In this document: in pieces, positions 40,180 through 57,210 of the stretch
Layout of the letters: each line of letters starts with the position of its first letter
How positions within the stretch are numbered: the first letter of the stretch is position 1
Assembly (NCBI GenBank): GCA_009784375.1
Contig: WRBV01000001.1
Coordinates: forward strand, 18,546 to 82,545
Reading direction: 5' to 3'
From: Bacillota bacterium
GTDB taxonomy: Bacteria; Bacillota; Clostridia; Christensenellales; UBA1242
DNA length: 64,000 nt
Program-made: the position numbers and the translations under genes
The notes under the pieces: generated by a model
What the model was told of the DNA's origin: nothing
The model's input: only the letters and a program-made list of their open reading frames with translations
Databases searched by the model: none

Positions 40180-40209
40180 TTGCCAAAATTTATTTTTTTA
40201 TAGTATAAT
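40180..40209 (+). promoter_or_regulatory. promoter of the six-gene operon (near-leaderless aguA)
   Basis: TTGCCA (40180-40185), 18-nt spacer, TATAAT (40204-40209). The ATG is at 40219 with no SD sequence. Confidence 0.55.
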
Positions 40210-40218
40210 TATCCATTA

Positions 40219-41205
40219 ATGAAAGCGGAGTTTAATAAACATGCCTGCACGGTATTGCTTTACCCACATGCATCAAAAAATGATGTATGGCGGTTAAATG
40301 CCAAAATTATCCGCAATGTAGTAATTGAACTTGCAAAAGTTGTATCTCAATTTGAACCAGTACTATTTGGATATGGTGATATACACCCATCAATAAGACA
40401 AAACAATATTTCCTTGGGCAGGATAGATTATGATGATATTTGGGTTCGAGATACTGGACCCATTCCTTTACGTAATAATAAATTGGTAATCTTTGGATTT
40501 GATGGATGGGGTGGACTCAGTTCGGATTTTGTACCGTCACAAATTGTTTCGTCTCAAATCGCTGACAAATTAAACCTTAGTATTGTCAATACAAGTGAAA
40601 TTGTATTAGAAGGTGGAAATATCTCGAGTGACGGCAAGGGAACGGCACTAGTTATCAAAGAACGCGTTCTTTCAAGTAATAAAAAATCACTTGACGAAAT
40701 AGAATCTGAACTTAAAAAATGCCTGGATCTAAACCGAATAATTTGGATCGAACGCGGGCTTATTTATGATGAAACCGAGACCCATGTTGATAACCTTTGT
40801 GTATTTGCAAGCGAAACTCAAATATTACTTGCTTGGACGGATGACAAACAAAATCCACAATATGACGTTGTACACGAAGCTTTTGATATTCTTTCAAAAA
40901 CCGAATATGAAATAATCAAAGTACCTATTCCAGACATATTTAAAAGAACCGAAGACGATTGCATTGGAATAAAAATAGTACAGGGCAACAAAGCAAGAAT
41001 TATGGGCGAACCAATCCAAGCAAGTTACATTAACTTTATGTTTGTGAATGGTGGAATTATATTGCCTCAATTCAATGCACCCCAGGATAAAAATGTGCTA
41101 GAATTATTTAAACAAATTTTCCCATCAAGACAAATCGTACCGTTTAATGCAAGAGAAGTAATACTGGGTGGTGGTGGATTGCATTGTATATCAAGAAACA
41201 TATAG
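40219..41205 (+). CDS. aguA: agmatine deiminase (PAD_porph / pentein family)
   Basis: DIWVRDTGP, VLEGGNISSDGKGT, ETETHVDNLCVF, ASYINF, C-terminal GGGGLHCISRNI with the catalytic Cys. Collinear with enterococcal AguA as recalled from memory. Confidence 0.85.
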   Translation: MKAEFNKHACTVLLYPHASKNDVWRLNAKIIRNVVIELAKVVSQFEPVLFGYGDIHPSIRQNNISLGRIDYDDIWVRDTGPIPLRNNKLVIFGFDGWGGLSSDFVPSQIVSSQIADKLNLSIVNTSEIVLEGGNISSDGKGTALVIKERVLSSNKKSLDEIESELKKCLDLNRIIWIERGLIYDETETHVDNLCVFASETQILLAWTDDKQNPQYDVVHEAFDILSKTEYEIIKVPIPDIFKRTEDDCIGIKIVQGNKARIMGEPIQASYINFMFVNGGIILPQFNAPQDKNVLELFKQIFPSRQIVPFNAREVILGGGGLHCISRNI

Positions 41206-41215
41206 GAGGACACAG

Positions 41216-43192
41216 ATGGACTATAAAACAAATTTGAAAGAAGCGATGAAACTTCTTATCGCCGACCAAGACGATACGTTCAAGGTTTATAAAGACCGAA
41301 AAATTCTCGGATCACTTGTTTTCAAGGATTTGTTGGATCGTCGGTCTGGTATTGACTCGAACGGTAATCCTTTGGAAGGCTTTTACCTTACACCAAAGAA
41401 CCGAGAAGTCGGATTAATGACCCGTCTTATTGGGCTGAATGGTGTATTGAATCTTATAAGCAGATATAACGTAGAACCGACTGATGCAGAAAAAAAGATA
41501 ATATACAAAGACATAAAAGATGTTCTTGCTTATATTGAAAAACATGGATATGATGCAAGCCCATACCTTGACGATGATACGAATGCATTTTATTTCAAAG
41601 AGAACCGAGTAGACGGCAAGAAAATATCTTATATGGACTCACGCACATGGGCGTTTTCTTTGTTTTTGGAAATTCGAAAACTTCACAACATAGAAACAGC
41701 AAAGGGTGGCAAAAAATTACTTGATTTCTCGCCTTTCATTGAAAGTGTTAACACAAGAATTAAGCTTGCTCTACGTTTTTTTGTTGATTCTGTTGTAATC
41801 GATAAAAATGGTGACGCTGTGGGTTGGGGCTTTGCAAATGGTTGTGAAGAACCTTCTTTGTATTTTACATATACATTACTCGAGGCATTTTCCGATTTCG
41901 AAGATGCGTGTTTGCTTGGAAGTAACCGTGACGAAGATTTCCTTGAATTTCTTAATGAGGGAAACACATATGACAAACCTATCGAGGATGAATTCCGCGA
42001 TAAATGTTTCCGTGTCGGAGACATTGCTTGGAATATGTTTGGTCATATAATCAAAGACGCATTCGTAAGTGACAGGTTCGATGACAAATTCCGAATTATC
42101 CCACGTGACGAGATTATTAATTCCTCACGCTCTAACGTTCTGTTTAACACAATTTACATCGTCTTTATTTGGCTTTATTCTTATAAAAACAACCACGAGA
42201 TTCGACCAACACAATGGGGCAACATAGAATCCGAAGATGCCATTGATAAATGTGAAGATGTAAAGGTCGCAATGGCACAAGCACTTTCACTTGTACAAAC
42301 ATTGTATGACGAATTAGTATCTGAAGGAAAAGACAGCATAGTAAGCCGTCACATTATTGCATTTGACCAAGACCACAAAATAGAAAGATTTGGAAAAGAA
42401 TTGAACGATGCAAACATATTAACGGCAAGTCTTTTGCCTATGCTTGCAAAGGCTAATAACCTTGTTGCGTTCTATATCCATAAATTCCCACAACAAAAAA
42501 TGGGTGTCTTATTTGAAAGAATGATTGGCGCCCGACTTTTAAGTGGAGAATGGCTATGGGCAAACCGATTGTTTGATTTACTTTCTACTGTTCGTTATAT
42601 CGGATCGATTGCCGATTTTTACGATTACTATGATACCTTTGAAAAGAAATATGCCGAAAAATCTACATCAACATCCAAAATGAAGAAGGATTTAACGGAC
42701 GAACTTAAACGTGAATTAGAACCAGCAATTGCAAAAGACGTACGACAAAAACTTGCAGCAAAACATAAACAAGACCTTGATGAAATGCAAGCACGTAATG
42801 AATTAAATTTCCCAATCGAAGTTCAAATCAACAAACGCGTAAACGAAATTGTTGACAAGCGGGTAATGGAAATTATCGGAACAATGTTCAATGATTTTGC
42901 AAAGTTTAACAAGCAAAAAGGCAAGAATGAAAAAGCATCAATGACCGAAGAGAATGCAAAGGTTTATGCGGCACTTAATGAATATGTCATGAGCCACTTT
43001 GACCAACCACTTAAAAAAGCAAGTGATGTAACAGGTAAAGCATCAATTGATTTATTGGGTGCGGCAAACATCGATATTATGACGGCGGCAAAAGAATTCT
43101 TTGAATTCACCGCAGACAATATGGAAAGAAAAGGTTTAAGTAAATTATCACTTGCTAACATATTTGAATTAATAAAAAAGGAAAAGGAGTAA
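41216..43192 (+). CDS. 658-aa protein: N-terminal alpha/alpha-toroid-like repeats plus K/E-rich helical C-terminal third; function unknown
   Basis: AGGAGG RBS, 10 nt after the aguA stop. SYMDSRTWAFSLFLE and DAVGWGFANGCEEPSLYFTYTLLEAF resemble terpene-cyclase/prenyltransferase-type repeats. Track ORF start 41168 rejected. Confidence 0.6.
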   Translation: MDYKTNLKEAMKLLIADQDDTFKVYKDRKILGSLVFKDLLDRRSGIDSNGNPLEGFYLTPKNREVGLMTRLIGLNGVLNLISRYNVEPTDAEKKIIYKDIKDVLAYIEKHGYDASPYLDDDTNAFYFKENRVDGKKISYMDSRTWAFSLFLEIRKLHNIETAKGGKKLLDFSPFIESVNTRIKLALRFFVDSVVIDKNGDAVGWGFANGCEEPSLYFTYTLLEAFSDFEDACLLGSNRDEDFLEFLNEGNTYDKPIEDEFRDKCFRVGDIAWNMFGHIIKDAFVSDRFDDKFRIIPRDEIINSSRSNVLFNTIYIVFIWLYSYKNNHEIRPTQWGNIESEDAIDKCEDVKVAMAQALSLVQTLYDELVSEGKDSIVSRHIIAFDQDHKIERFGKELNDANILTASLLPMLAKANNLVAFYIHKFPQQKMGVLFERMIGARLLSGEWLWANRLFDLLSTVRYIGSIADFYDYYDTFEKKYAEKSTSTSKMKKDLTDELKRELEPAIAKDVRQKLAAKHKQDLDEMQARNELNFPIEVQINKRVNEIVDKRVMEIIGTMFNDFAKFNKQKGKNEKASMTEENAKVYAALNEYVMSHFDQPLKKASDVTGKASIDLLGAANIDIMTAAKEFFEFTADNMERKGLSKLSLANIFELIKKEKE

Positions 43193-43195
43193 TTC

Positions 43196-44089
43196 ATGGA
43201 AATAATTACATTTTGGTCGTATAAAGGGGGAGCAGGTCGAAGTTCAACCTGTCTTAACACTCTACCTTACTTGGTGGATGTTTTAAATGCGACCAAACAA
43301 TCACCATTACTTTTATTGGACATGGATTTGGATAGTGCGGGTATGACATATCTTCTTGATTTGGATAAACATTTTCAAAACAACGAAGTTTACGATATCA
43401 AGAGTTTTCTTAAAGGCGACGAGAATTGGTCCGAAAATCCAGCAGAGTCCCTTATGGAACACACATTGTATCAAAAGTTCGTACCCGTGGGTGAAAAGCT
43501 TGGTGTTGATAACGATGCTGTTATGTTTCTTGGTGTGCATGATGGAAAGAAAATAGACAACGCAGACATGACGGGTGCAAAAGAAGAAATTTTTGCAAAG
43601 TTCCGAAGGTTTTGCCGCAAGAATAAAATAAGCGCAGTTGTAATGGACAGCTCGGCTGGGACACAGTTTTCAGCAGAACTTGCAATAGGAGCCGCAACAA
43701 TAGTTGTAAGCTGCATGCGTGCAACTACACAATTCAGAACAGGAACATTTAATTATCTTGACCGATTACTTGTCGAACAGCCTGACAAAAAAATCATTGT
43801 TCTTCCAACCGTTGTTCCAAATGGTGAAAAGATAATCGACGACATGCCACAAAGAAAAACCACCGTCGAAGATATAAAGAAAAAAATTGAAACTTTCGGG
43901 CTTAAAAATGTAAAGCTTGATTTTGTCGAAGAAGAAGAACTTGGAATTAACGAAGTCGAGCGTTTCAAATGGCGTGAAGGTGTGTTGTACAAAATCTGCA
44001 AAGACCAAAAACTTGCCGAAGACGAAAAAATAGCCGTATCGCGTTATAAAAAACTTGCCGAAAAACTTGTGGAGGGCGATTATGACTAG
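43196..44089 (+). CDS. ParA/MinD-family (SIMIBI) ATPase with KGGxGR P-loop variant
   Basis: FWSYKGGAGRSS (signature Lys kept, GKT replaced by GRS), LLLLDMDLDSAG (switch I-like), AVVMDSSAGT (Walker B-like). The RBS AAGGAG lies inside the upstream gene's end. Confidence 0.75.
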   Translation: MEIITFWSYKGGAGRSSTCLNTLPYLVDVLNATKQSPLLLLDMDLDSAGMTYLLDLDKHFQNNEVYDIKSFLKGDENWSENPAESLMEHTLYQKFVPVGEKLGVDNDAVMFLGVHDGKKIDNADMTGAKEEIFAKFRRFCRKNKISAVVMDSSAGTQFSAELAIGAATIVVSCMRATTQFRTGTFNYLDRLLVEQPDKKIIVLPTVVPNGEKIIDDMPQRKTTVEDIKKKIETFGLKNVKLDFVEEEELGINEVERFKWREGVLYKICKDQKLAEDEKIAVSRYKKLAEKLVEGDYD

Positions 44090-46295
44090 TTACAACGAAT
44101 TTGCAAAAAAGATTAACAAAGAAATCAAATGCCCTAATCTTCGCGAGCTTTTGTTTGGAATGCCCGATGTCGAAGCCGAGGATTTAAAAGGTATTGGTAC
44201 AATCAACCGAATGTTAACATTCGGTTTTATGGTTGCATTTACCAAATGGAAAAATTGCATTATCGATGGTAACAAAATCCATCTTTCTCCCAATTCACGA
44301 CGTGTATTCGACGCATTCAAAAGCGTATATAACGGTGAAAACATCGAACTTGATTTGATAATTTACACAATGACTGAAATGCAACTTGATGAATATGGCA
44401 TAGGTAAACAATCCTATTTTTCCGATATCATAAGCGGGGCAGAAGACACGGTACAAATTCCTGCACTTCGTAACTTGATTAAAACATGGTTCCAAAGTGT
44501 AAAACGTGCCGAAAAAAATCAAGAAATATTACTTGGCAAATTGGTTGGTTTATACAACGCATTTCCTTTCCTTAAAAATTCCAAGGTCAGCTTTGTAAAA
44601 CATGAAGAACTACCATTCGAATTAATTGAAATAGAATTGCGTCAAGGAAAAGTCCTAAAACCGTATATGATTATGGCTCGTAACGAGTTTGGTAATTTTT
44701 ATCTGCAATCTTATTCAATTTTACAAGACAATTTGTCACGACTTACCTATTCAACATTCGATGGAGTCGAATTATACCAGGAAGTCATCTTGACCAAAAT
44801 ATTTTCACGCGAGGCGGCAATTCGCAACCAAAACCAAGCCCCACGAAATATTATGGCTAAGTCACTTTTCTCACTCAGTTTTAAATATATAAAGAACTTG
44901 TCTCTTGCATTATCTGATACGGTAAAGCGCCAAACAATGCAAAAATTATATGAACATTTTTCACAAAAATACAGCGATGTATTCGAACTTGGATTCAAAA
45001 AACCCGACGAGCTTAACTGGGATAACATTATTACTATCCTTATAATAGAAGAAGGTCCAAGTGAATTACTAGAATTCATACTTGACTCGGATGGCTTTTA
45101 TTTTGATATGATTCTTGACAACTTGGAAAAGCGTTACCACGAACCTGGCTTTACACAAATGGTAAAACTAGATTATGAAAAAACCCAAGCTCAAGAACTT
45201 GCCGTATTAAAAAGCTATATAGACGATAACAGCTCGATCATCAAGAATATAAGCAACATCAACAAGACACTAATGGCAAAGGGTATTATCAATGGACTTG
45301 CATCTCTTGAAAATAACCACAGAACAAGTAAAGCATTATTCGTCGAAAGTCTTGCCGTACGTATTAAAAACGTAGACAAAATTATTATGTCTAACGACAC
45401 TAACCGTAGCAAAACATTAAAAATTAACAAAGTACTTGAAAAGACTTTCCGATATGTAATTCCATTTTATTATGGAGTAATCGCATATCAACAAGAAAAG
45501 GAAGATTTGTTTTCCGAAATCGAAACAAAGAACTTCGCACTTGACAAGGTTGACAAAAACACAATTTTCTTGAAATGTGAAAAGAAATTTTTCGAAGCAG
45601 CCGAATCATCAATCAAATTACTTAACACAAAATCACTTGGCGAATTGGTGAGCGAATTCAGAACGCTTTGTAATTCTATTTCCACATCAAAAGGACGCAA
45701 AGTCGAATTGTCACCAAACGGACGCATGTTAAAAAGCGCAATCGGTCGTGATTATATATGTGCCGTTGAATGTTTCAATAAAGTTCTTGAAATTAAACCA
45801 GATGAAAGCATGGATTTATCAGACGCAAAAATCCCAACAGACATCGTTTCATTTATCAATAATGAAAAACATGACAAGGGTTATGGTACCGTTTACGCAA
45901 ACATCGTCTTGTTTAATAAATTCCTTATCAAGGTCAAGGAATTGTTATACTTCCTTATATATAACGAGGACTACCAACGCGAGATGATGCTTGGTCAACA
46001 GATTTCTTTTGATCCAATCTATCCATATGTAGTTTGCTATAGAACCAAGAGCGAAAACCGCGACGGCTACAGCGTCAACAGCTTTATCGTTTTTCCATCC
46101 GAAGAATCAATGTCAAGCGAGATTAAAATCTTGTCCGAACGCGACTATGAAATCAATGAAAAATATTATTGTATACCTAACCAAACAACATCGAATTCAC
46201 GATGGTGGATTGAACCGTTCCTTATAAGTTGTCGTAAATACGACCAGCTTGTACACTCATGTTTTAAAAAGAAAACACCCGAGGAGGAAGAGTAA
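44082..46295 (+). CDS. 737-aa protein of unknown function
   Basis: ATG overlaps the upstream stop (ATGACTAG) and follows a GGAGGG RBS. No motif recognised. Confidence 0.6.
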   Translation: MTSYNEFAKKINKEIKCPNLRELLFGMPDVEAEDLKGIGTINRMLTFGFMVAFTKWKNCIIDGNKIHLSPNSRRVFDAFKSVYNGENIELDLIIYTMTEMQLDEYGIGKQSYFSDIISGAEDTVQIPALRNLIKTWFQSVKRAEKNQEILLGKLVGLYNAFPFLKNSKVSFVKHEELPFELIEIELRQGKVLKPYMIMARNEFGNFYLQSYSILQDNLSRLTYSTFDGVELYQEVILTKIFSREAAIRNQNQAPRNIMAKSLFSLSFKYIKNLSLALSDTVKRQTMQKLYEHFSQKYSDVFELGFKKPDELNWDNIITILIIEEGPSELLEFILDSDGFYFDMILDNLEKRYHEPGFTQMVKLDYEKTQAQELAVLKSYIDDNSSIIKNISNINKTLMAKGIINGLASLENNHRTSKALFVESLAVRIKNVDKIIMSNDTNRSKTLKINKVLEKTFRYVIPFYYGVIAYQQEKEDLFSEIETKNFALDKVDKNTIFLKCEKKFFEAAESSIKLLNTKSLGELVSEFRTLCNSISTSKGRKVELSPNGRMLKSAIGRDYICAVECFNKVLEIKPDESMDLSDAKIPTDIVSFINNEKHDKGYGTVYANIVLFNKFLIKVKELLYFLIYNEDYQREMMLGQQISFDPIYPYVVCYRTKSENRDGYSVNSFIVFPSEESMSSEIKILSERDYEINEKYYCIPNQTTSNSRWWIEPFLISCRKYDQLVHSCFKKKTPEEEE

Positions 46296-47095
46296 TGCTT
46301 CACATTATGCTTGATGCATATGATTGCACAGACACAAAGACCGCCGATTTGCGTGGTGTATATGAAACAATAACAAAAGTCGTCGATATTATGGGGGCAA
46401 AGACAATCATGCCGCCTGTACTTGTTCCTTATTATTATGGTACAACCGCAGATGACGACGGTATAAGTGCATTTGTATTATTAAAAGGTGGTCACTTTAC
46501 AATTCATACATTTCCATCCAGACAATGTTATTTCGTGGATATGATGTATGATGGCTTCATAAGCGAAGATAAATTCCGCGATGTTATGTTAAAAGAATTA
46601 CCTGCTACATCGTCAAGCGTCGCATCGGTAGACCGTCGTTTTTGTATTCAAGACCAAAACAAAGATATGCGCATTGACGAAGCAAAAGACTTTGGACCTC
46701 ATTATATGATTAAAAGCAATGAAAAGATTGATCTTGATATAAACAAGATATACGATGTTCTTGACCGCTTGCCGCCCCAAGTAAATATGACCCCTATTAT
46801 GCGCCCAGTTGTTATTACCAACAAAGTAAAAAATCCAAAGTACATAAGCGGTATAACAATGATAGCCGAGAGCCATATTGCAATCCATTATGACATCGAA
46901 AACAAGAGTCTTTTCGCAGATATTTTTTCATGCAGCTTTATCGACAGCAAAGATGTATCCGCAACACTTGCTCGTGAACTTGGAATAAAATGTGAAAATA
47001 TTCTTATTTCTCGTGGAACAAAACATACGAATCGCCATGCTCTGCGCGACCAAGTAATAACACGTGCAGCAAGATGGCGCGAAAACATAACATAG
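46295..47095 (+). CDS. tandem (pseudo-dimeric) S-adenosylmethionine decarboxylase-fold protein, pyruvoyl-type; substrate unknown
   Basis: N-half GISAFVLLKGGHFTIHTFP (no Ser). C-half ISGITMIAESHIAIHYD..ADIFSCS. Compare class-1 SpeH/SpeD [26 protein letters not shown]. Start overlaps the upstream stop (TAATG). Confidence 0.7.
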   Translation: MLHIMLDAYDCTDTKTADLRGVYETITKVVDIMGAKTIMPPVLVPYYYGTTADDDGISAFVLLKGGHFTIHTFPSRQCYFVDMMYDGFISEDKFRDVMLKELPATSSSVASVDRRFCIQDQNKDMRIDEAKDFGPHYMIKSNEKIDLDINKIYDVLDRLPPQVNMTPIMRPVVITNKVKNPKYISGITMIAESHIAIHYDIENKSLFADIFSCSFIDSKDVSATLARELGIKCENILISRGTKHTNRHALRDQVITRAARWRENIT

Positions 47096-48660
47096 GAGGC
47101 TTTGTGGACGGTAAAATCGTAAAACAATTTACAAAGTTTATTTATCCATTTAAATACCATAAACCTGATACAACCTGTCGTATATTCGAGGAGATACAAA
47201 GTTCAAAGGGTAACCCCATTCGTATCTGGGATTGTTTTGGAATAGATGGTCAAGATCTTCACGAAGAAATCGCCAATCTATATTCATTCCATGAAACTCG
47301 TGAACGTATCGCCGACTGTTTTCAACTTGGCATACATAACAAATGCCGTGAAGCAATTGGGCTGCCTCCCAAGGCAACAGACAATATAACATTCACAATG
47401 CGTGGAAGAAAAGACACAGTAAATATCAGCATTCCCAATGTCCGTGTTTATTTATTTGAATCCGAAGTTGGTTTTATCGAAGTGGAATGTGAATACCAAA
47501 CACAAAACATTGAAGATTACATTGACTGTAATTACTTTATAAGCGAAATCAAATCAGAAAAAAATACTTTCACAATGCAAAGAAGAATATCGGCAACCGA
47601 AAAATTCGTTTCAACATTCACTATGGAAGACTTAATCAAAAATGTACTTTACTATGTCGGCGACGACATTCGATTTTTTGACAATGTCGGAAAAGAATTC
47701 AACGAGAAAAAACCCATTATTTATTCTTACCTGCTGCTTGATAAGAAGCCCACAAATTTGGAACAAATAATCTATTATGCTCGAAAGAATTATAAAGCAA
47801 GCTATAAACCACCAGCATCCGACTTTATTATCGAAGGCAACCCTCAAGTTTATCAAACATTCGACAACTCATATTGGGGGACAAGCCAATACGGGACAAC
47901 CAATATAAGCTTTCTTGTCGGCGACAGGCAAACTGATGAATTCTTTCACAATAATTTTGTATATAAACTTAATAACAGTTATTTTCATCTTTTCCTAAGT
48001 GTCTTGCACCAAAAATATGCAACCCGACTTCTCACGACAAAAATGAGCCACCTTGACAAGGTTGTTAAAGACTATGAAATCATGCAACAACAAGCATGCC
48101 AGGCAAGGGAATACCAGGCCCAATCGGCATCTCTTAAATTCCGTGCATTTTTTAATGTCCCATCCAACATTGAACATGTTAACCGCTATTATGATCTTGT
48201 AACACATACTTTTGAAATTGAAAAAATTTACCAAAGTTTTAACGAAGATTTAAACAGTATTATTTCCCTGTCCGATACGTACACAGCAAAAAGCAATGAA
48301 TACCAAAGAGAGAAAAAAGAACTGGAACGAAAGAAAATCGGTGTATATGTTCTTCTATTCGGTACGATTATATCGGCTGTAACTATGTTAAGTTCTGTAT
48401 GGACTGTTATCGAAAAAATTGCTGGGGAACCAGTAAGAGTTGGCTCGCCCCTTATGATTATTATCTTTTCAGCACTCTTGTTATTAATAACTGTAGCGGC
48501 TGCAAATGTGTTTATACGAATTCATGAGATAAAAGAAGCATCTTACCAACTTGAAGAACAAAAAAGAACGGGCGAACTTGGAAAAGATTGTATTCGTAAA
48601 AAAAGAAGAAAATATATCAGAATAAAGGACAAAGAACACCTGCAAAAAGAATCTGAATAA
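47074..48660 (+). CDS. membrane protein with CorA-like topology (large soluble N-domain, coiled coil, two C-terminal TM helices, basic tail); no GMN motif
   Basis: TM1 IGVYVLLFGTIISAVTMLSSVWTVI, TM2 LMIIIFSALLLLITVAAANVFI, tail RKKRRKYIRIKDK. Alternative GTG start at 47104 after an AGGAGG. Confidence 0.6.
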   Translation: MARKHNIGGFVDGKIVKQFTKFIYPFKYHKPDTTCRIFEEIQSSKGNPIRIWDCFGIDGQDLHEEIANLYSFHETRERIADCFQLGIHNKCREAIGLPPKATDNITFTMRGRKDTVNISIPNVRVYLFESEVGFIEVECEYQTQNIEDYIDCNYFISEIKSEKNTFTMQRRISATEKFVSTFTMEDLIKNVLYYVGDDIRFFDNVGKEFNEKKPIIYSYLLLDKKPTNLEQIIYYARKNYKASYKPPASDFIIEGNPQVYQTFDNSYWGTSQYGTTNISFLVGDRQTDEFFHNNFVYKLNNSYFHLFLSVLHQKYATRLLTTKMSHLDKVVKDYEIMQQQACQAREYQAQSASLKFRAFFNVPSNIEHVNRYYDLVTHTFEIEKIYQSFNEDLNSIISLSDTYTAKSNEYQREKKELERKKIGVYVLLFGTIISAVTMLSSVWTVIEKIAGEPVRVGSPLMIIIFSALLLLITVAAANVFIRIHEIKEASYQLEEQKRTGELGKDCIRKKRRKYIRIKDKEHLQKESE

Positions 48661-48741
48661 AAAGAAAGCCGACTTTGTCGCGTTGCTCTGAGTTTAATGC
48701 ATTTCTTGGATTTTAAAATATTGTTAAATAATTCCCAACAA

Positions 48742-48770
48742 ACGAGCCGAATGGGCTCGTTCTATATTTC
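48742..48770 (+). terminator. possible terminator of the six-gene operon
   Basis: ACGAGCC / GGCTCGT stem with only a weak T-tract. Confidence 0.4.
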
Positions 48771-49156: not shown

Positions 49157-49906
49157 ATGGCAATTGCAGTATTTGGGGATATCCACGGAAATCTGGAGGC
49201 TTTGGAAGCCATTCTAAAACACATAAAAAAGAACCGTAAAATTAAACAAGTCTATTTTTTGGGTGATGCTATTACATTTGGACCAGACTCGTCCGCTTGT
49301 CTAAAGCTTTTGTCAAAATACAAATTTGTACATTGCGTCACAGGAAACCATGAACAAAGGATGGTACGTTATGATTCAAGTGTTGCAACAATGACATATG
49401 CGGGCATCAAGCACATGGAATACATATTCCACAGCCTTGATAACGATGATCTACGCTTTATTAAAAGCATGCCAAACGAGATTAAGATAAACTACAAAGG
49501 CTTTAACGTTTTATTCACACATTACAGCCTTAATGAACAAGGTGTTGTGCGTGATGACTACGAAGAATTTACCGAGGCACAACTTCACAAATTATTCGGT
49601 GACAAGAACGCAGACATTGTGTTCTTTGGTCACATTCACTCAAGAAAAATAATCATCGATGAACATGGCAAAAGTTATGTGTGTAACGGTTCAAGCGGCT
49701 GTGTAAAGGGTGATACAACATTCTATACTTACTTTGACGTTAACCGAGCAATTGGGGACGAACCTAACCTTGATATATACCGTGTGAATATAAAATTTAA
49801 CCGAAAGAAATTTGATGAAAAAATGAAAACGCAAGATATCCCCGAAAAGCTTAACTTTGGGAAATTCTGTTTTGGGAAAGACTATTCTCCAGACACAGAA
49901 GAATAA
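49157..49906 (+). CDS. metallophosphoesterase (calcineurin-like)
   Basis: GDIHGN, GDAITFGPD, GNHE, GHIH motifs. GGAGG RBS. Confidence 0.8.
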   Translation: MAIAVFGDIHGNLEALEAILKHIKKNRKIKQVYFLGDAITFGPDSSACLKLLSKYKFVHCVTGNHEQRMVRYDSSVATMTYAGIKHMEYIFHSLDNDDLRFIKSMPNEIKINYKGFNVLFTHYSLNEQGVVRDDYEEFTEAQLHKLFGDKNADIVFFGHIHSRKIIIDEHGKSYVCNGSSGCVKGDTTFYTYFDVNRAIGDEPNLDIYRVNIKFNRKKFDEKMKTQDIPEKLNFGKFCFGKDYSPDTEE

Positions 49907-50082
49907 TTACATAACTTACAAACAAAACCTATGTGCAATCCATGGGTTTTTTCTTTGGCTTTATTATCCATCCACATATTTCGGCAAATATATATATTTT
50001 AAGACACTTTCATATAAAGATATATATATGAATGTAATCGTATATCAAGTATAATAGTAGATATAAAACTAAGGAGGTTACT

Positions 50083-50325
50083 ATGACCTTGAATGCCGCT
50101 GTTGCGAGACGAGTTGCTGGGTTACTCGAGAAACATGGGATAACACAATACCGTCTTGTTGTAGATTCTGGACTTACACACTCTGCTATGCGCTATATTA
50201 TGAGTGATGCAAAAAAAGATGTAAGACTTTCTACTATTGCAAAAATTTGTACTGTATTTAATATGACATTGGACGAGTTCTTTAACGACAAAGTGTTTAA
50301 CCTTGAAAATATTGATTTTGATTGA
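50083..50325 (+). CDS. XRE-family HTH transcriptional regulator
   Basis: 80 aa, ...ITQYRLVVDSGLTHSAMRYIMS..RLSTIAKICTVFNMTLDEFF. AGGAGG RBS. Confidence 0.75.
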   Translation: MTLNAAVARRVAGLLEKHGITQYRLVVDSGLTHSAMRYIMSDAKKDVRLSTIAKICTVFNMTLDEFFNDKVFNLENIDFD

Positions 50326-51804: not shown

Positions 51805-52068
51805 TCAATCTGGCAAATTAGCGGTCAACAAACTTACCTTGTATCCTTTCCATTTTGCCGATACATCTTCGAGTGATGTAGGCTCGGGAAAATCGATTTC
51901 TTCACGTAATGCTATTTTAAAATATACATGCATCTTGTATTCAGCCTCGGCGTAAACGTCTTCTAGCGTTTCACCTATTGCATAAATTAAAAGGTCGGGC
52001 ATAAATCCGTTATACGCTCCCGTTTCCTCGTTCAATATGAAGACTATTGGATATGTAAACTTTGGCAT
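51805..52068 (-). CDS. HicB-like antitoxin-fold protein (no hicA partner seen)
   Basis: MPKFTYPIVFILNEETGAYNGFMPDLLIYAIGETLEDVYAEAE resembles the HicB N-terminal domain. Confidence 0.55.
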   Translation of the reverse strand: MPKFTYPIVFILNEETGAYNGFMPDLLIYAIGETLEDVYAEAEYKMHVYFKIALREEIDFPEPTSLEDVSAKWKGYKVSLLTANLPD

Positions 52069-52237
52069 TTTGTTCCCCTATATGTTCTATTTTATGATAC
52101 TCCTGCACATTTGTCTAATCATTTATCCCCAATTTTTGAACTTTATCTATACCAATAATAAGAAATTAATGTTAGACAAAAATAACTTTTATGATATAAT
52201 ATTAACATTAACATTCGGGGACAAGGAGGTATTACCT

Positions 52238-52453
52238 ATGCGAACATTCACAGACTCGACAATTCTTGACGAAAGTAAAACTGGTTCAAAGTTTAACGGA
52301 ACCGAAATTACTTTCAATGATACTAATGGCAAAATGGTAGAATCATCTCTACTTGACAACTTTACGAAATTCCCAGAAGGAATGCAAAACTTTCTATCTA
52401 CACTTCTTGGTATTGAAAAAACAAAATCATCCGAACCTGGACTTGAAATGTAA
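52238..52453 (+). CDS. hypothetical 71-aa protein
   Basis: AAGGAGG RBS before ATG 52238. The long upstream extension in the track ORF is rejected. Confidence 0.45.
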   Translation: MRTFTDSTILDESKTGSKFNGTEITFNDTNGKMVESSLLDNFTKFPEGMQNFLSTLLGIEKTKSSEPGLEM

Positions 52454-52462
52454 TCAACCAAA

Positions 52463-52489
52463 CCACCGAATGCGGTGGTTTTTATTTTT
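52463..52489 (+). terminator. intrinsic terminator
   Basis: CCACCG / CGGTGG stem followed by a T-run. Confidence 0.7.
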
Positions 52490-52592
52490 GCAACATAAAC
52501 ACATCAATTAAATTATTTGAATAGTATGAAATAAAACATGCTTACATAATTCGGTCATTTGGGATCGCAATTATGTAAGGAGAATTTTATAA

Positions 52593-53813
52593 ATGGCAGA
52601 CACACCTTTTCCACAGAGTAACGACATGTTACTTTTTACGTTTTCAGCAGGTCCGACAATTAATCTATTTAATCTTGATGTTACGACTGTAAACGCTACA
52701 CTACAAAACAACTTACCCTTCACAGGGCAAACTGTTGCCTTGGCTTTTAACGCCCAGGATGACTTTGTATATACGTGTGTATATAATTCGGAACCCCCTG
52801 ATACAGGAAAGCTTGTTGACATTGTTCGCTTGGACAGCGATTTAAATACAACTTCGCTTGGGCTGCCAGACGGATTACCAGTTACTACTGCTGGTACCTA
52901 TTACTATGCAAGCTATATCGATAAAGATGGTTTTTGGTTTCTTTCAACCAATGGTGCAACAAGTTTTTATGTAATAGACATGCGTCCAGGTTCACCGACT
53001 TTTTTCAAGTTAGTTGACCCAACCAATGGATTTCAAGAACAGACAGGCAATTATGGAACTCCATTTGTTTCCATGCCCCCTATTCCTGTTGGCGGCAGCA
53101 GAACAACATGGGTCAGAGCATCTGATGGATTATTGTATCAAGTTTACTCGTCTTATAATACAAGTACGCAAATTACAACTTTCGGATTTATTTCTATTGA
53201 CCCAACAACGGGTATTGCTGGACAGGCTTCTGGTGGACCATGGACTATTCCATCACTTGATGCTATTTTTGCTATGACAATAGATTCGAATGATACTATT
53301 TATATAGTAACTGGGTATGGAAAATTATTTTTTACTTTTGAATTTTCAAATGGCATAATAACTGGACAAAATTTGGGAACAGTTGATATTGGCACTTATA
53401 TTCCGTACGGTGCTGCTATGAATCCACTTGCGGATCCTGGGTCGTCAACTGTGCCGAACTTTGCCCAATGGGATGTAACCGATTGCGATGGCATAACCAC
53501 CACCATGTCAAGTAACACAACAACAGTTGAAGTCGTTGATGTAGAAATAACAAAAACAGCAAGTTGCTCATGGGTATTGAAGGGTGGTGTCATTTCATAC
53601 TGTGTAACTCTGAGTAACCAGAGCGATATAGACCTTGTTGACACTTTATTCCGCGACACCCTTAATTCAAGACTTGTATATGTAACAGGAAGCTTTACCG
53701 TCGACGGAGTTGAAACAACACCTTTAACAAGCGGTCAAACAATATCATATGAATTGGATCTTAATGCAAAAACAATAAAAACTATTTGTTTCAAAGCACG
53801 ACTTCGTGTTTAA
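52593..53813 (+). CDS. DUF11-type (conserved repeat domain) C-terminal protein with uncharacterised ~300-aa N-domain, no signal peptide
   Basis: C-terminus VEITKTASCSWVLKGGVISYCVTLSNQSDIDLVDTLFRDTL...VYVTGSFTVDG resembles DUF11. Confidence 0.55.
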   Translation: MADTPFPQSNDMLLFTFSAGPTINLFNLDVTTVNATLQNNLPFTGQTVALAFNAQDDFVYTCVYNSEPPDTGKLVDIVRLDSDLNTTSLGLPDGLPVTTAGTYYYASYIDKDGFWFLSTNGATSFYVIDMRPGSPTFFKLVDPTNGFQEQTGNYGTPFVSMPPIPVGGSRTTWVRASDGLLYQVYSSYNTSTQITTFGFISIDPTTGIAGQASGGPWTIPSLDAIFAMTIDSNDTIYIVTGYGKLFFTFEFSNGIITGQNLGTVDIGTYIPYGAAMNPLADPGSSTVPNFAQWDVTDCDGITTTMSSNTTTVEVVDVEITKTASCSWVLKGGVISYCVTLSNQSDIDLVDTLFRDTLNSRLVYVTGSFTVDGVETTPLTSGQTISYELDLNAKTIKTICFKARLRV

Positions 53814-53838
53814 CACCTTTGCCTAGATTAAACAAAAA

Positions 53839-53862
53839 AGGATAGCGAACTATCCTTTTTTC
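53839..53862 (+). terminator. intrinsic terminator
   Basis: AGGATAG / CTATCCT stem followed by a T-run. Confidence 0.7.
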
Positions 53863-53937
53863 TTGGTGGGAACAAAGCGACACCAAAATAATCCTTGCAA
53901 AATCTTAAAGCATATGTTAAACTTTGGTTATCTTGTT

Positions 53938-54013
53938 GGGAACTTAGCTCAGCTGGTAGAGCATTCGGCTTACATTCGAACGGTCGGGGGTTCGAGCCCC
54001 TCAGTTCCCACCA
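53938..54013 (+). tRNA. tRNA-Val (TAC), CCA encoded
   Basis: Acceptor GGGAACT/AGTTCCC, D-arm GCTC-AGCTGGTA-GAGC, anticodon loop CTTACAT, T-arm GGGGG-TTCGAGC-CCCTC. Confidence 0.9.
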
Positions 54014-55596
54014 AACAAGGTACGTGCCAAACCGTCAAGGACGGCGAGCGTACCTTTTTCGTTGCCTATACTGTTAATAGCATTATCGGTGGTTTCCTTG
54101 TCGATGGTGATTTTGTTTCCACCACCGTTTCCGTCAATGGATAACCAAACAACAATACGGTCATCGTAAATATAGCAGGCACTTACAAGGTCATCATACA
54201 ATCGCTTTTGAAAGTCAAGGTCGGATTCCAATTCCTGTGGTGTTATATAGTCGTTTATGAAATTGATAATATCTTGGGCGGTTGCTTGGATTCCGTTTTC
54301 AAATGTGATTTGAATTTTTTGCTCGGTCAGGTCGTTTATAAGAATAGTCAACTCGTCAATTTTGACTTGGCAAGACTTTTTGAGAGTGTCGCTTTTCATG
54401 GCAACGGCTTCAATGAACGCTTGGGTCGTGTTCTCGATTTGCTTGTGTGCGATGCCTATTTGGGTTTCAAGTGATTTGATTTGCTTTTCGCCTGTGCGGT
54501 CTTTGTAATATTCAATCACACTATCGGCAATTCTGCTGACTTTCTTTGGGTCTTTCAAGTATTCCAAAATGACTGAAATTATAAACAATTCCAGTTTTTC
54601 TTTTTGTTCCAATCGCTTTTGGCATGATTTGTTGTTGTGCTTTCTCTTGCGTGAGGATCGGCAACTGTAATAGCGGTACACCTTGTCAGGTTTATTGCCA
54701 CCGTCTGCGACCATGTTGCCACCACAAAGACCACAAAAGCATTTTCCAGTTAAATAATACGTTTGTTTGATTGAGTCCTTGCGTGTGTAAATTTTGTTTG
54801 CATCCAACATTTCTTGGACTTTATCCCACAACTTTTTATCAATGATAGCAGGATATATGTTCGTCCAAACTCTGCCAAACCTTTCAAACTCGCCAATGTA
54901 TTTGGGATTCCTAAACCAGTTATCAAACAACTTGTAATCAAATTTCTTTCCCCTGTATGTAATGTTCCGAGCATTCAAATCGTCAACAATGGCTTTCTTT
55001 GGTGTTCCGTCTGCGTATCGTTGGAAGCACTCTTTTATAATTTCGGATTCCGTTTCACAAATACCGACCTTGTGGATCGTGCCTTTCTTGCCAACTTTGT
55101 CGGTGTCCGTCAACTTGAAACCATACAAGATTTTTGTGCCTAAATATGTGCCGTTTTCAAGTGCGGTTATCATGCCGTCACGAACTCGCTTTGATAATCG
55201 TTGACTGTACTTTTCGTCATTCCATTCCAAAAACATTTCGTATATTTCGCCACCTTCGTCATCGCTGACTGGCTCTGTGGCACTTACAACACGAACACCG
55301 TGATCCCTGCGTAATTGTGCTTTGTACAACATACTATCGTGGCGGTTACGTGCAAAGCGGTCAAACTTGTATACAAGGATGACTTGAAATATTTTTAACC
55401 CTGCCTCGTCAACCATGTTTTGAAATTCAGGACGGCGGTCATTCGTTCCTGTCCTTGCTTTGTCGTTGTAAACCTTTACAATCTTGTAACCCATCTTTTC
55501 GGCGTGTTCTTTACACACCCTGATTTGTCCGTCGATGCTTTGTTCGTTTTGTCCAACAGATGAAAATCTTGCGTAGATGACTGCGTTGTTGTTCAT
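54001..55596 (-). CDS. large serine recombinase (531 aa)
   Basis: MNNNAVIYARFSSVGQNEQSIDGQ (catalytic Ser region), DRFARN, recombinase domain, zinc ribbon CGLCGGNM..YYSCRS, coiled-coil C-terminus. AAGGAG RBS. The track ORF extends to 55722. Confidence 0.9.
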   Translation of the reverse strand: MNNNAVIYARFSSVGQNEQSIDGQIRVCKEHAEKMGYKIVKVYNDKARTGTNDRRPEFQNMVDEAGLKIFQVILVYKFDRFARNRHDSMLYKAQLRRDHGVRVVSATEPVSDDEGGEIYEMFLEWNDEKYSQRLSKRVRDGMITALENGTYLGTKILYGFKLTDTDKVGKKGTIHKVGICETESEIIKECFQRYADGTPKKAIVDDLNARNITYRGKKFDYKLFDNWFRNPKYIGEFERFGRVWTNIYPAIIDKKLWDKVQEMLDANKIYTRKDSIKQTYYLTGKCFCGLCGGNMVADGGNKPDKVYRYYSCRSSRKRKHNNKSCQKRLEQKEKLELFIISVILEYLKDPKKVSRIADSVIEYYKDRTGEKQIKSLETQIGIAHKQIENTTQAFIEAVAMKSDTLKKSCQVKIDELTILINDLTEQKIQITFENGIQATAQDIINFINDYITPQELESDLDFQKRLYDDLVSACYIYDDRIVVWLSIDGNGGGNKITIDKETTDNAINSIGNEKGTLAVLDGLARTLFGGN

Positions 55597-56256
55597 GTTC
55601 TGTTTCTCCTTATTTAATTTTTTTGACTGACTGGCATATTGCCTTATCGGTCTTACCCAGCCAAAAGCAAAACCCAAAATTGCAGTCAAGGGCAACGAAC
55701 TCCTGAAAAATAGACCAATCAAAATTTGACCAGTCCATTGCTTTTCGTTGTGCGTTTTACCCCTTGACGGCGGTTTTGGGTTTTGTTACAAAAATGGTAA
55801 GACAGATAAGGCAACAATTTTGATGCTATCGTAATTGCGTCCTCACCATACGGATATGAATCATGCACTTGTCAGGTAGCGACCTGACAAACCCATTGTA
55901 TTTGTCCGTATATTGAGGGAAAGGAATTTTATTGCCAGTTCATTATACGGACAGGAATCGTACACTAGTCAAGTGGGGGCTTGACTGACCCCTACTTTTT
56001 GTCCGTATAGTGAGGGGTTGCGTTTAGTACTCATCTTGTCGGTAAGGTAAGGGGAACAACTGCCAAGAGCAAAGGCATTTGGGATTTGGACAAATGCCAA
56101 TTCCCCAACTTTATGTCATGCCAATAGCAAAAGCGGTTTAGCGAGGCGAAGGCAGGCAAAAAGTGGGGTGGCTTGTCCACCCACGTGCCTGCTCGCCTGA
56201 TCCGTGAGGGTGTAAAGTATTAGTGTTACCTTTACACCCTGCATTCTATCTTTAAC
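55597..56256. other. ~660-nt gene-free, hairpin-dense segment (candidate large structured ncRNA and/or regulatory/recombination DNA)
   Basis: Long imperfect palindrome at 55641-55812. Two tandem ~97-nt modules at 55841-56017. Hairpins at 56051-56106, 56145-56197 and 56207-56240 (11-bp perfect stem). Confidence 0.35.
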
Positions 56257-57210
56257 TTGTGGATGAGTTCAATTGTCAAGTGCCACAAGATGCTATATAC
56301 TGCTTATATGTGCAAGGGTGTTGCAAAGCCATTCTTGAAATGGGCAGGTGGTAAAGGTCAATTACTCGATAAATTCGGCAGTCTATATCCTGCTGATTTC
56401 AAAAACTATATTGAGCCATTTGTTGGTGGCGGTGCAGTTCTTTTTGACGTTTTGCAAAGATTTGACATCGAACGTGCAGTTATCATTGATTTGAATAAAG
56501 AACTCATAAACTGCTATCGCTGTATTAAAGAGAACGTTGACGAGATTATGAAACAACTTGAACAAGTTAAATCAAGATTTCTTTCATTGTCGTTAGATTA
56601 TCGAGCAAAGTTTTATTTAGAAATTCGCAAACGCTATAACGAAATCAAACTTAATGGGAACTATGACTTTGAAAAAGCAGTCGATTTCATTTTCTTGAAC
56701 AAGACCTGTTTCAATGGTTTGTATCGTGTAAACAGCAAAGGTGAATTTAACGTTCCATTTGGCAAACACAAAAACCCTTGTATATACGACCGAGATAACT
56801 TGATTCTAATTTCAAAGTTGTTGCAAAAAGTTGAAATCTTGTATGGCGATTACAAGCAATGTCTTGAATATATTGGTGATGATTCATTCTTGTATTTCGA
56901 CCCACCATATCGTCCATTGACAACTTCGGCATCATTCGTTGGTTATTCGCAAAATGGTTTCAATGATGATGACCAAAGGCAACTAGCCAACTTGATAAAG
57001 GGTCTAGACAAGCAGGGGTGCAAGGTTATGCTTTCAAACTCTGACCCTAAGAATGCTGACCCAACTGACAATTTCTTTGATGACTTATATAATGGATTTG
57101 ACATAGTTCGAATCAAAGCAAGGCGAATGATAAATTGCCAAGCGGATAAACGTGGTGACATAACAGAGATAGTTGTTCGCAACTATGAAAATGGAGGTGC
57201 AAATGATTAA
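56257..57210 (+). CDS. Dam-like (D12 class) N6-adenine DNA methyltransferase
   Basis: PFLKWAGGKGQLL, EPFVGGGAV, FYLEIR, LYFDPPY. True start uncertain (TTG 56257, ATG 56290 or ATG 56308). Confidence 0.85.
   Translation: MWMSSIVKCHKMLYTAYMCKGVAKPFLKWAGGKGQLLDKFGSLYPADFKNYIEPFVGGGAVLFDVLQRFDIERAVIIDLNKELINCYRCIKENVDEIMKQLEQVKSRFLSLSLDYRAKFYLEIRKRYNEIKLNGNYDFEKAVDFIFLNKTCFNGLYRVNSKGEFNVPFGKHKNPCIYDRDNLILISKLLQKVEILYGDYKQCLEYIGDDSFLYFDPPYRPLTTSASFVGYSQNGFNDDDQRQLANLIKGLDKQGCKVMLSNSDPKNADPTDNFFDDLYNGFDIVRIKARRMINCQADKRGDITEIVVRNYENGGAND

Follow-up and report, generated by a model that had tools for sequence, protein, structure and literature searches.

Gene 5 (46295–47095, + strand) lies in a stretch of 64,000 nucleotides (nt), hereafter the window, from the genome of a Bacillota bacterium of the order Christensenellales (contig WRBV01000001.1 of assembly GCA_009784375.1), and is the fifth member of a six-gene unit. 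The product of 266 amino acids (aa) is named S-adenosylmethionine decarboxylase (AdoMetDC) by NCBI (MCL2755490.1), and likewise by JGI. On the basis of fold, internal duplication and gene context, it is described here as a fused tandem AdoMetDC-fold proenzyme and a predicted pyruvoyl-dependent arginine decarboxylase. The architecture, that of a single-site, fused pseudo-dimeric pyruvoyl decarboxylase with predicted self-processing, is assigned with high confidence. That the family decarboxylates L-arginine to agmatine is fairly likely from gene context and sequence signatures, and the S-adenosylmethionine (SAM) decarboxylase name in public records is probably wrong for this protein.

Two AdoMetDC-fold domains in one chain

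A GAGGAGG ribosome-binding site stands 7 nt 5' of the gene 5 start, and in the string TAATG the start codon shares a base with the TAA stop of BIG2, the gene before it. The NCBI call of 266 aa uses this start, whereas the ENA call begins 4 codons later, at the second Met, and yields 262 aa. The ENA start, by dropping 46295–46306, loses the conserved MLHI with His3; of the 48 distant relatives whose sequence extends over this position, 45 retain the His.

An earlier note, made from the DNA letters alone, had proposed that the protein consists of two AdoMetDC-fold repeats, at about residues 1–115 and 140–266, and this proposal is borne out. The Pfam family AdoMet_dc (PF02675) matches gene 5 in two stretches (E=1.4e-26, 93.3 bits against a cutoff of 25), both halves match PHROG SAM-decarboxylase families, and the N- and C-terminal halves resemble each other in BLASTP (E=4e-5) and, as family profiles, in hhalign (probability 95%, E=4e-8, 85 columns). 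Around its Glu-Ser site, the C-half can be aligned with the PDB sequences of AdoMetDC from T. maritima and A. aeolicus, and the two motif strings that the note had quoted are present verbatim, GISAFVLLKGGHFTIHTFPSRQCYFVDMMYDG at residues 56–87 and ISGITMIAESHIAIHYDIENKSLFADIFSCS at residues 184–214.

An AlphaFold2 (AF2) model built with 115 homologues as input reached a predicted local distance difference test score (pLDDT) of 86.6 and a predicted template modeling score (pTM) of 0.85. It contains α/β domains at residues 2–113 and 134–240, in good agreement with the repeats first proposed, joined by a linker of lower confidence. The best PDB matches of this model in Foldseek were the AdoMetDCs of T. 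maritima (template modeling score, TM, 0.81 on target; root-mean-square deviation, rmsd, 2.0 Å), A. aeolicus and human, with probability 1.0; for the entries 1tmi, 1vr7 and 1tlu, TM was 0.79–0.81 on target and rmsd 2.0–2.7 Å. A structure comparison had been named as a possible refutation of the repeats, and both domains are modeled as the AdoMetDC fold. By sequence score and model superposition, gene 5 is a member of AdoMetDC fold class 1b.

Distribution of the gene 5 family

A search of 5.8 billion proteins with gene 5 gave 452 matches, the best 120 of which are nearly all 260–270 aa long, and a scan of one genome per species detected a relative in at least 505 genomes. The hosts are mostly uncultured Clostridia and Bacilli/Mollicutes, with some Bacteroidales, Cloacimonadota and others, and the sources are gut, rumen and termite samples. 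Representatives at 50% identity, searched exhaustively with HMMER, yielded 419 clusters, 96 of them at E≤1e-10. The family was also looked for in phages, where the only matches were single-domain SpeD homologues, and in plasmids, which gave no copy. Conservation was analyzed in two sets, namely 115 close relatives and, as the distant set, 60 tandem representatives of 50%-identity clusters.

A probable single composite active site

The N-half (residues 1–124, 46295–46666, + strand) is a non-cleaving AdoMetDC-fold domain that keeps H3, D7, D54, S58 and H71, and the C-half (residues 125–266, 46667–47092, + strand) is the predicted cleaving domain, with S185, E192/S193, H198 and C213. Ser63, His68 and Cys83, the processing and catalytic set of T. 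maritima AdoMetDC, are essential in that enzyme (Li, Liang, Phillips and Michael, JBC 2023, PMC10407285), and all three are present in the C-half, as S193, H198 and C213. The N-half retains only part of the set: H71 is kept, G65-G66 (46487–46492, + strand) replace Glu-Ser, with G66 at the place of the serine, and there is no Cys at position 86, which corresponds to T. maritima Cys83. The earlier observation that this half offers no serine for a pyruvoyl group extends to the distant set, where the N-half cleavage position lacks Ser in 58 of 60 relatives and position 86 lacks Cys. The predicted self-cleavage site E192/S193 (46868–46873, + strand) is assigned by comparison with the family. Here the note had reported a retained Glu-Ser in the C-half; the pair is present in gene 5 and its serine is conserved, but the glutamate is mostly replaced, the residue preceding Ser193 being Gln in 87 and Glu in 28 of the 115 close relatives. 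The conserved feature of the cleavage site is therefore the Ser, not Glu-Ser.

Invariant positions among the close relatives include D7, Y9, D54, S58, G66, H71 and C78 in the N-half and D132, F133, P135 and H136 at the start of the C-half, followed in the rest of the C-half by S193, H194, H198, D209, F211, S212, C213, R240 and G241. The N-half is no decayed relic: it is highly conserved and holds more invariant columns than the C-half. In the distant set, the polarity of a non-cleaving N-half and a cleaving C-half is the same in all 60 representatives, and conservation is asymmetric. S193 and C213 are each found in 59/60 C-halves, and in the N-half H71 is found in 60/60, S58 (as S/T) in 58/60 and G66 in 49/60, whereas the mirror-image residues drift, with S185 in 36/60 and H198 in 47/60. 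By analogy with characterized AdoMetDCs, this asymmetry fits one composite site to which the C-half gives S193 and C213, and the N-half S58 and H71; on the composite-site reading, S185 and H198 would drift because the second site has been abandoned. Of the two pseudo-repeats of human AdoMetDC, one holds the pyruvoyl Ser68 as well as Cys82, and the second holds Ser229 and His243. Ser58 and His71 of gene 5 presumably correspond to Ser55 and His68 of T. maritima and to Ser229 and His243 of the non-pyruvoyl half of the human enzyme. The argument on residues supplied in trans reportedly goes back, together with the human structure, to work of Toms and colleagues from 2004. A one-site pseudo-dimer with its site in the second repeat, as the note had envisaged, is thus consistent with which residues are kept and which drift.

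Gene context and sequence signatures of the substrate

Gene context was analyzed in 81 non-redundant loci, in which open reading frames (ORFs) were called and clustered. Immediately upstream of the gene 5 relative, 28 of the 81 loci carry an agmatinase (SpeB) of ~300 aa (TIGR01230, 171 bits; Pfam Arginase, 1e-60). Among 46 loci of the window type or its sister types, the same 5' slot holds an agmatine deiminase (AguA) in 22 and an agmatinase in 3, and overall one of these two enzymes is a partner in 53/81 loci. In three loci, the cluster also encodes SpeE and a distinct SpeD of the E. coli type (TIGR03331, 428 bits). Two of the three also contain agmatinase, and these two clusters, with the gene 5 relative, encode the full route from arginine through agmatine and putrescine to spermidine. 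Where separate SpeD and SpeE are present in the cluster, a second AdoMetDC would be redundant. The same logic of a separate speD led to the experimentally confirmed SpeDA of V. chlorellavorus (Li et al., PMC10407285), SpeDA being the arginine decarboxylases that arose from AdoMetDC homologues.

Further context comes from fusion and co-occurrence. P0209 (602 aa, L167:1221–3029), a distant relative, is a natural fusion that joins in one chain the tandem domain, with a dead N-half and ESH/SC in the C-half, and a complete agmatine deiminase domain (PAD_porph, E=2e-79). In loci anchored on the ATPase of the window-type unit, aguA/speB was found only together with the gene 5 family (6/10 versus 0/21; Fisher p=3e-4, uncorrected for relatedness). 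The gene 5 family thus clusters with agmatine-using enzymes and/or a second speD, as is expected of SpeDA. Conversion of arginine to agmatine, offered earlier as an attractive guess, is now backed by comparative genomics through the agmatine-enzyme neighbors, the separate speD–speE and the P0209 fusion.

An assignment of the ~300-aa neighbor cluster to a second ATPase family ('ATPb') was rejected, as its sequence and scan show agmatinase; the same identification overturned the view of gene 5 as a purely defense component.

Sequence signatures agree with this context. Gene 5 scores 67.3 bits with the NCBIfam AdoMetDC equivalog TIGR03330, under the cutoff of 75.65. A Pro is completely conserved in bona fide AdoMetDCs and not in SpeDA (PMC10407285); by our own reading of the text and Fig. 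S5 of that paper, it maps to HTWPE, and the equivalent position 201, after the catalytic His (HxWPE), is never Pro in the catalytic half of the close relatives (0/115). For SpeDC, the ornithine decarboxylases (ODCs) derived from SpeD, four diagnostic residues around the pyruvoyl site have been described, Gln, Thr, Phe and Tyr (PMC10407285), and the signature around the pyruvoyl Ser in two active fusions reads QLIETSLxSGHF, as taken by optical character recognition (OCR) from Fig. S5 of PMC10407285. At this site gene 5 has TMIAESHIAIHY, with T/A/V188, Q/E192 and Y199 in the family; on our mapping of the positions, the SpeDC diagnostic residues are absent from gene 5. Within the gene 5 family, no conserved residue distinguishes the speB-linked members from those linked to the window-type system.

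Alternative explanations

If gene 5 were a bona fide AdoMetDC serving aminopropyl transfer, fused like the eukaryotic enzyme, the NCBI and JGI names would be correct, the best Pfam, NCBIfam and PDB matches, all of them AdoMetDC, would follow naturally, and an agmatinase neighbor could feed putrescine to a SpeD/SpeE route. Position 75, which from our reading of the human structure we take to be the N-half counterpart of the ribose-binding Glu of AdoMetDC, is moreover Glu in about a third of the close relatives. We nevertheless regard this explanation as unlikely: gene 5 is under the AdoMetDC equivalog cutoff, the Pro of bona fide AdoMetDCs is absent from the catalytic half in 115/115 relatives, separate high-scoring SpeD and SpeE accompany the family in three loci, the window operon has no speE, and P0209 is fused to agmatine deiminase, whose substrate is agmatine rather than a SAM product. 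Activity on ornithine, as in SpeDC, or on lysine, with agmatine-enzyme neighbors that are coincidental or act on another guanidino compound, is improbable to a greater degree. SpeD homologues are known to have become ODCs, a DIFSC motif is common to the gene 5 C-half and the SpeDC halves of the published fusions, and profile scores to SpeD and SpeDC halves are about equal (with the sequences again from OCR of Fig. S5). An ODC, however, gives putrescine directly, which would make pointless the agmatine partners seen in 53/81 loci and in one fusion, and in gene 5 the signature QLIETSLxSGHF is replaced by TMIAESHIAIHY.

A further explanation concerns the TIR/CorA-like system in which the window copy of gene 5 is found. 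There, the protein might use a non-canonical substrate or provide the precursor of a system-specific small molecule, such as an agmatine-derived signal or antiviral metabolite, with AguA/SpeB as a tailoring or off-switch enzyme. This would account for the separate clade of the system-linked copies and for the swapping of partners between aguA, speB, a radical SAM plus a phosphoenolpyruvate (PEP)-utilizing enzyme, and a CxxCxxCC protein; fusions of relatives to this radical SAM (at 52% identity with the neighbor type) and to a CxxCxxCC domain also occur, the radical-SAM fusion makes a stand-alone cassette with the PEP-utilizing enzyme, and the CorA-like protein is homologous to ligand-gated CorA effectors in PADLOC. 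Since no conserved residue splits system-linked from speB-linked copies, however, ordinary arginine decarboxylation is probable, and both the product and the defense role of the system are conjecture; we assign this explanation a low probability. Very improbable in our view is a non-catalytic or regulatory protein, for instance a ligand-binding subunit that kept the fold and lost the activity. One half is already catalytically dead, and a dead AdoMetDC paralogue reportedly acts as a regulator in T. brucei (PMC5201418), but S193, H194, H198, C213, S58 and H71 are invariant in the 115 close relatives, and S193, C213 and H71 are near-invariant in the 60 distant ones, the pattern of a working pyruvoyl enzyme. 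A SAM-related role exerted through the CorA-like effector, by comparison with SAM-AMP signaling, was also considered and rejected: the family occurs in TIR subtypes without CorA, and system-linked and speB-linked members share all conserved residues.

Several points weigh against the arginine decarboxylase reading that we prefer. The public NCBI name is S-adenosylmethionine decarboxylase. A neighboring agmatinase, taken by itself, is also compatible with a true AdoMetDC of a polyamine operon, and only the three separate-speD loci and the aguA fusion discriminate arginine from SAM. Position 75 is Glu in 39/115 close relatives, so that a loss of SAM binding is not clear-cut. Self-processing and substrate are predictions for the whole family, and which half gives which residue is argued by analogy with the human and T. 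maritima structures. The AguA-like protein of the window scores below the aguA equivalog cutoff, and its substrate is therefore likewise a prediction. Finally, the characterized SpeDA enzymes are slow, with kcat of 0.02–0.5 per s (PMC10407285), which fits biosynthesis better than a rapid defense effector and leaves the role in the operon unexplained.

Proposed mechanism

Taken as a whole, the explanation we favor is reasonably likely: a one-site fused pseudo-dimer that converts arginine to agmatine and belongs to an accessory agmatine module in a defense-like operon. The two class-1b AdoMetDC-fold domains of gene 5 would pack as an intramolecular pseudo-dimer with one active site. Self-cleavage is predicted to separate residue 192, a Glu in gene 5 and a Gln in most of its relatives, from Ser193, which would become the N-terminal pyruvoyl group of an 8.5-kDa α chain (193–266), leaving a β chain of 21.9 kDa (1–192). 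The C-half would give the pyruvoyl group and the catalytic Cys213, and the non-cleaving N-half may contribute Ser58 and His71 to the active site. Gene 5 would then convert L-arginine to agmatine, which the product of the first gene in the unit, an agmatine deiminase, would turn into N-carbamoylputrescine. We hypothesize that a probable conflict or defense system acquired gene 5 and aguA as an accessory pair, an "agmatine module". The module could simply supply polyamines, provide a signal or precursor molecule, or deplete arginine; the slow turnover of known SpeDA argues against rapid arginine depletion, and an arginine-depletion effector was ranked low for this reason.

The six-gene unit of the window

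The six genes form one transcription unit, since they overlap or abut and are bounded by promoter-like and terminator-like sites. The aguA-like gene and gene 5 flank BIG1, the ATPase gene and BIG2 on either side, and the CorA-like gene comes last. At the head of the unit, a promoter-like site TTGCCA-18-TATAAT (40180–40209, + strand) matches the consensus at 11/12 positions; a consensus match only, it is the best + strand site in the region and falls in the 40-nt gap after leuS. In the stretch from its TATAAT to the aguA ATG (window 40204–40221), only 9 nt separate the two, with no visible Shine-Dalgarno sequence; the aguA mRNA may be leaderless or near-leaderless, or the aguA start may lie further downstream. 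At the other end, a terminator-like hairpin (48741–48761, + strand) with an 8-bp stem, 5 G-C pairs and a T-rich tail stands 81 nt past the CorA-like stop.

The first gene (40219–41205, + strand; MCL2755486.1) encodes an AguA-like agmatine deiminase family protein of 328 aa (Pfam PAD_porph, E=6e-80), which matches the solved agmatine deiminases of Arabidopsis, S. mutans and E. faecalis over its full length (E=5e-53 to 6e-41) and scores 253 bits with the NCBIfam aguA equivalog, against a cutoff of 382. An aguA in the same operon, as the earlier note had it, is thus confirmed as an aguA-like first gene, but the operon is not of the polyamine type: genes two to four and the sixth gene are part of an uncharacterized system that carries either TIR or CorA-like proteins, and the Pfam scan and gene calls found no speE in it.

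BIG1 (41216–43192, + strand; start as in MCL2755487.1) is a protein of 658 aa with an (α/α)6-toroid N-terminal part and a long C-terminal coiled coil. Its AF2 model (pLDDT 80) retrieved GH76 mannanases and 2-epimerase toroids in Foldseek with probability 1.0 and TM 0.5–0.6, a likeness at the level of fold only. The third gene (43196–44089, + strand) encodes a ParA/MinD-like variant P-loop ATPase of 297 aa with the Walker A motif SYKGGAGRS, in which Arg stands for the P-loop Lys. It matches NCBIfam NF047398, "KGGVGR-motif variant AAA ATPase", below cutoff (E=2e-13) and a ParA-like PHROG (E=2e-5), and its invariant residues are K10, G11, G12, R15, D42, D44 and D151. BIG2 (44082–46295, + strand; 737 aa) is uncharacterized and has no family match; some relatives hold only the N-terminal ~230 aa, and short versions (~235 aa) occupy the same slot at other loci. 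Neither BIG1 nor BIG2 matched Pfam, NCBIfam, PADLOC, PHROGs or PDB sequences, as single sequences or as alignments, and a homologue search returned "hypothetical protein" only. By hhalign the two are unrelated and are not paralogues. The last gene (47074–48660, + strand) encodes a CorA-like membrane protein of 528 aa with two C-terminal transmembrane helices (PADLOC CorA-like PDLC01175, E=5e-6). With this protein included, 11 of 14 orthologues match PDLC01175 (best 3e-9) and 5 match PDLC01043 (7e-12); PDB sequences include no relative.

In the window, the unit lies between leuS and rplK/rplA. Downstream of it (window 49157–50325) are a calcineurin-like metallophosphoesterase and a Cro/C1-type helix-turn-helix protein, and past rplK/rplA (about 51805–56300) a HicB-like antitoxin, a DUF6923 protein, a serine recombinase and a D12-class DNA methyltransferase; these neighbors give the region a mobile-element or defense flavor. 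Pfam revealed no TIR protein in the window.

The BIG1–ATPase–BIG2 triad across metagenomes

To describe the wider system, metagenomes were scanned with the ATPase as anchor, and 31 reasonably complete loci were counted. The BIG1–ATPase–BIG2 triad is their constant core: a toroid/coiled-coil protein, an ATPase with KGGxGR where KGGxGK is usual, and a partner of 700–1000 aa. Triad loci that lack gene 5 carry a TIR protein in 21/21 cases, and those with the gene 5 family carry TIR in 7/10 and a CorA-like protein in the remaining 3/10. The triad system (window 41216–46295 and 47074–48660; sister loci L088–L166) is widespread in gut, rumen and termite metagenomes and is not in PADLOC v2. Flanking accessory slots hold a radical SAM/SPASM enzyme, a GNAT acetyltransferase, or a variant radical SAM with a PEP-utilizing enzyme. 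In loci lacking the decarboxylase, the slot after BIG2 is often taken by a GNAT acetyltransferase of ~205 aa (L099:7157–7786, L102:4567–5184, L106:3219–3824, L117:13194–13829, L163:13191–13796), and a radical SAM/SPASM maturase-like enzyme often precedes BIG1 (L128:6187–7296).

In the tree of the gene 5 family, the system-linked copies form one clade, apart from the speB-linked and speD–speE-linked clades, which argues for a single recruitment followed by co-diversification and not for chance insertion into a polyamine operon. At L168:2666–6782, and also in L169, a gene that joins the tandem decarboxylase with a variant, MSMEG_0568-like radical SAM enzyme precedes one for a PPDK_N/PEP-utilizing enzyme, and the two make up a stand-alone cassette; the same three activities occur as separate genes downstream of the triad in TIR-LRR subtypes (subtype C, e.g., L052 and L146). 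The fused radical SAM is 52% identical to the neighbor-type radical SAM, and other relatives are fused to a CxxCxxCC domain. The radical SAM/PEP-utilizing cassette suggests an arginine-derived product.

Behind some sister loci, a pPIWI-RE-associated nuclease, a 990-aa TIR-TPR protein or an 820-aa TPR protein was found (L011:13109–14230, L007:12715–15684, L009:11513–13972), which hints at a defense-island setting; other system loci adjoin housekeeping genes, transporters or Hsp90. The triad system is probably conflict- or defense-related, with the CorA-like protein as probable effector in the window. More tentatively, and with doubt prevailing, the decarboxylase and an agmatine-consuming partner could be a functional part of an undescribed immune system built on the triad, with a TIR or CorA-like effector and an arginine-derived signal, precursor or antiviral agent. 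In such a system the partner would be AguA or SpeB, and in sister subtypes a radical SAM and a PEP-utilizing enzyme.

Significance

In a literature search on KGGVGR, on AdoMetDC or agmatine in defense, and on fused SpeD arginine decarboxylases, no description of the family, the ATPase or the triad was found; the gene 5 family is large and apparently undescribed. For polyamine biochemistry, it would provide an AdoMetDC-fold pseudo-dimer with polarity opposite to that of the eukaryotic enzyme, and would show, for a second time in nature, how a pyruvoyl enzyme with two sites in a homodimer turns into a fused one with a single site. It also points to a likely systematic misannotation, whereby proteins named S-adenosylmethionine decarboxylase probably make agmatine in gut bacteria. 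In addition, the family marks an uncharacterized TIR/CorA-like system whose variable slots hold the predicted arginine decarboxylase, agmatine hydrolases, radical SAM enzymes and GNAT. Should this association prove functional, arginine/agmatine chemistry would be a new ingredient of anti-phage defense and, if true, the first link of pyruvoyl amino-acid decarboxylation or polyamine chemistry to prokaryotic immunity. The triad system is compact enough for direct testing.

Comparison with known systems

SpeDA enzymes, which have three or four origins, are AdoMetDC homologues neofunctionalized to pyruvoyl-dependent L-arginine decarboxylase (PMC10407285). Gene 5 shares with them the class-1b fold, the Ser/His/Cys processing triad, the clustering with speB/aguA/speE and the lack of the AdoMetDC-specific Pro, and the same reaction, from arginine to agmatine, is predicted for it. 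SpeDAs are presumably single-domain two-site homodimers and are not described as fusions (PMC10407285), whereas gene 5 is a one-site covalent tandem.

Fusions of SpeD with SpeDC are known from D. phosphitoxidans and Ca. Omnitrophica, and V. vadensis has a fusion of SpeD with a degraded SpeDC (PMC10407285). As in gene 5, two SpeD-homologous domains lie in one ORF of ~270–320 aa, and in V. vadensis only one domain self-cleaves. The order of the halves differs: the N-half of the fusions is a bona fide AdoMetDC and the C-half an ODC or dead, whereas gene 5 has a dead N-half, with Gly-Gly and no Cys in place of a self-cleaving AdoMetDC domain, and a predicted active C-half. The fusions adjoin speE; the partners of the gene 5 family are aguA or speB, there is no speE in the window operon for gene 5 to precede, and the SpeDC signature is absent from gene 5. 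Identity between the gene 5 halves and the published fusions, with sequences transcribed from OCR of Fig. S5, is ~20–25%.

The eukaryotic class-2 AdoMetDC is likewise a fused pseudo-dimer of class-1b-like units with one pyruvoyl site, to which the non-cleaving unit gives Ser and His. It is the mirror image of gene 5, in that the pyruvoyl group and Cys belong to its N-terminal unit and to the C-terminal unit in gene 5; a pyruvoyl Ser in the N-terminal repeat was found in none of the 60 tandem representatives, all of which have the reverse order. Its substrate is SAM, that of gene 5 probably arginine, and the similarity is at the level of fold only (Foldseek, 10% identity). In T. brucei, an active AdoMetDC-fold unit is reportedly paired with a dead paralogous unit, the prozyme (PMC5201418), as in gene 5; there the pair are two polypeptides, each a class-2 pseudo-dimer, and the dead one is an allosteric activator, whereas gene 5 is one chain, whose dead unit probably serves to complete the active site.

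The last gene of the window operon is homologous to PADLOC CorA-like effector models, which recalls type III CRISPR immunity. Type III CRISPR signaling with a SAM-AMP-gated CorA effector was reportedly described by Chi and colleagues in Nature in 2023. The partners in the window are different, namely a toroid protein, a variant P-loop ATPase and a 737-aa protein; the six operon proteins have no Cas match in Pfam, NCBIfam or PADLOC and include no cyclase, CRISPR arrays and cas genes elsewhere in the window not having been searched for. With regard to Thoeris-type systems, the window operon has no TIR protein, whereas sister subtypes of the triad do carry TIR proteins. Reversed polarity, a different predicted substrate for a fusion and different partners set gene 5 apart from the SpeDA enzymes, the published fusions, eukaryotic AdoMetDC and the T. 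brucei pair.

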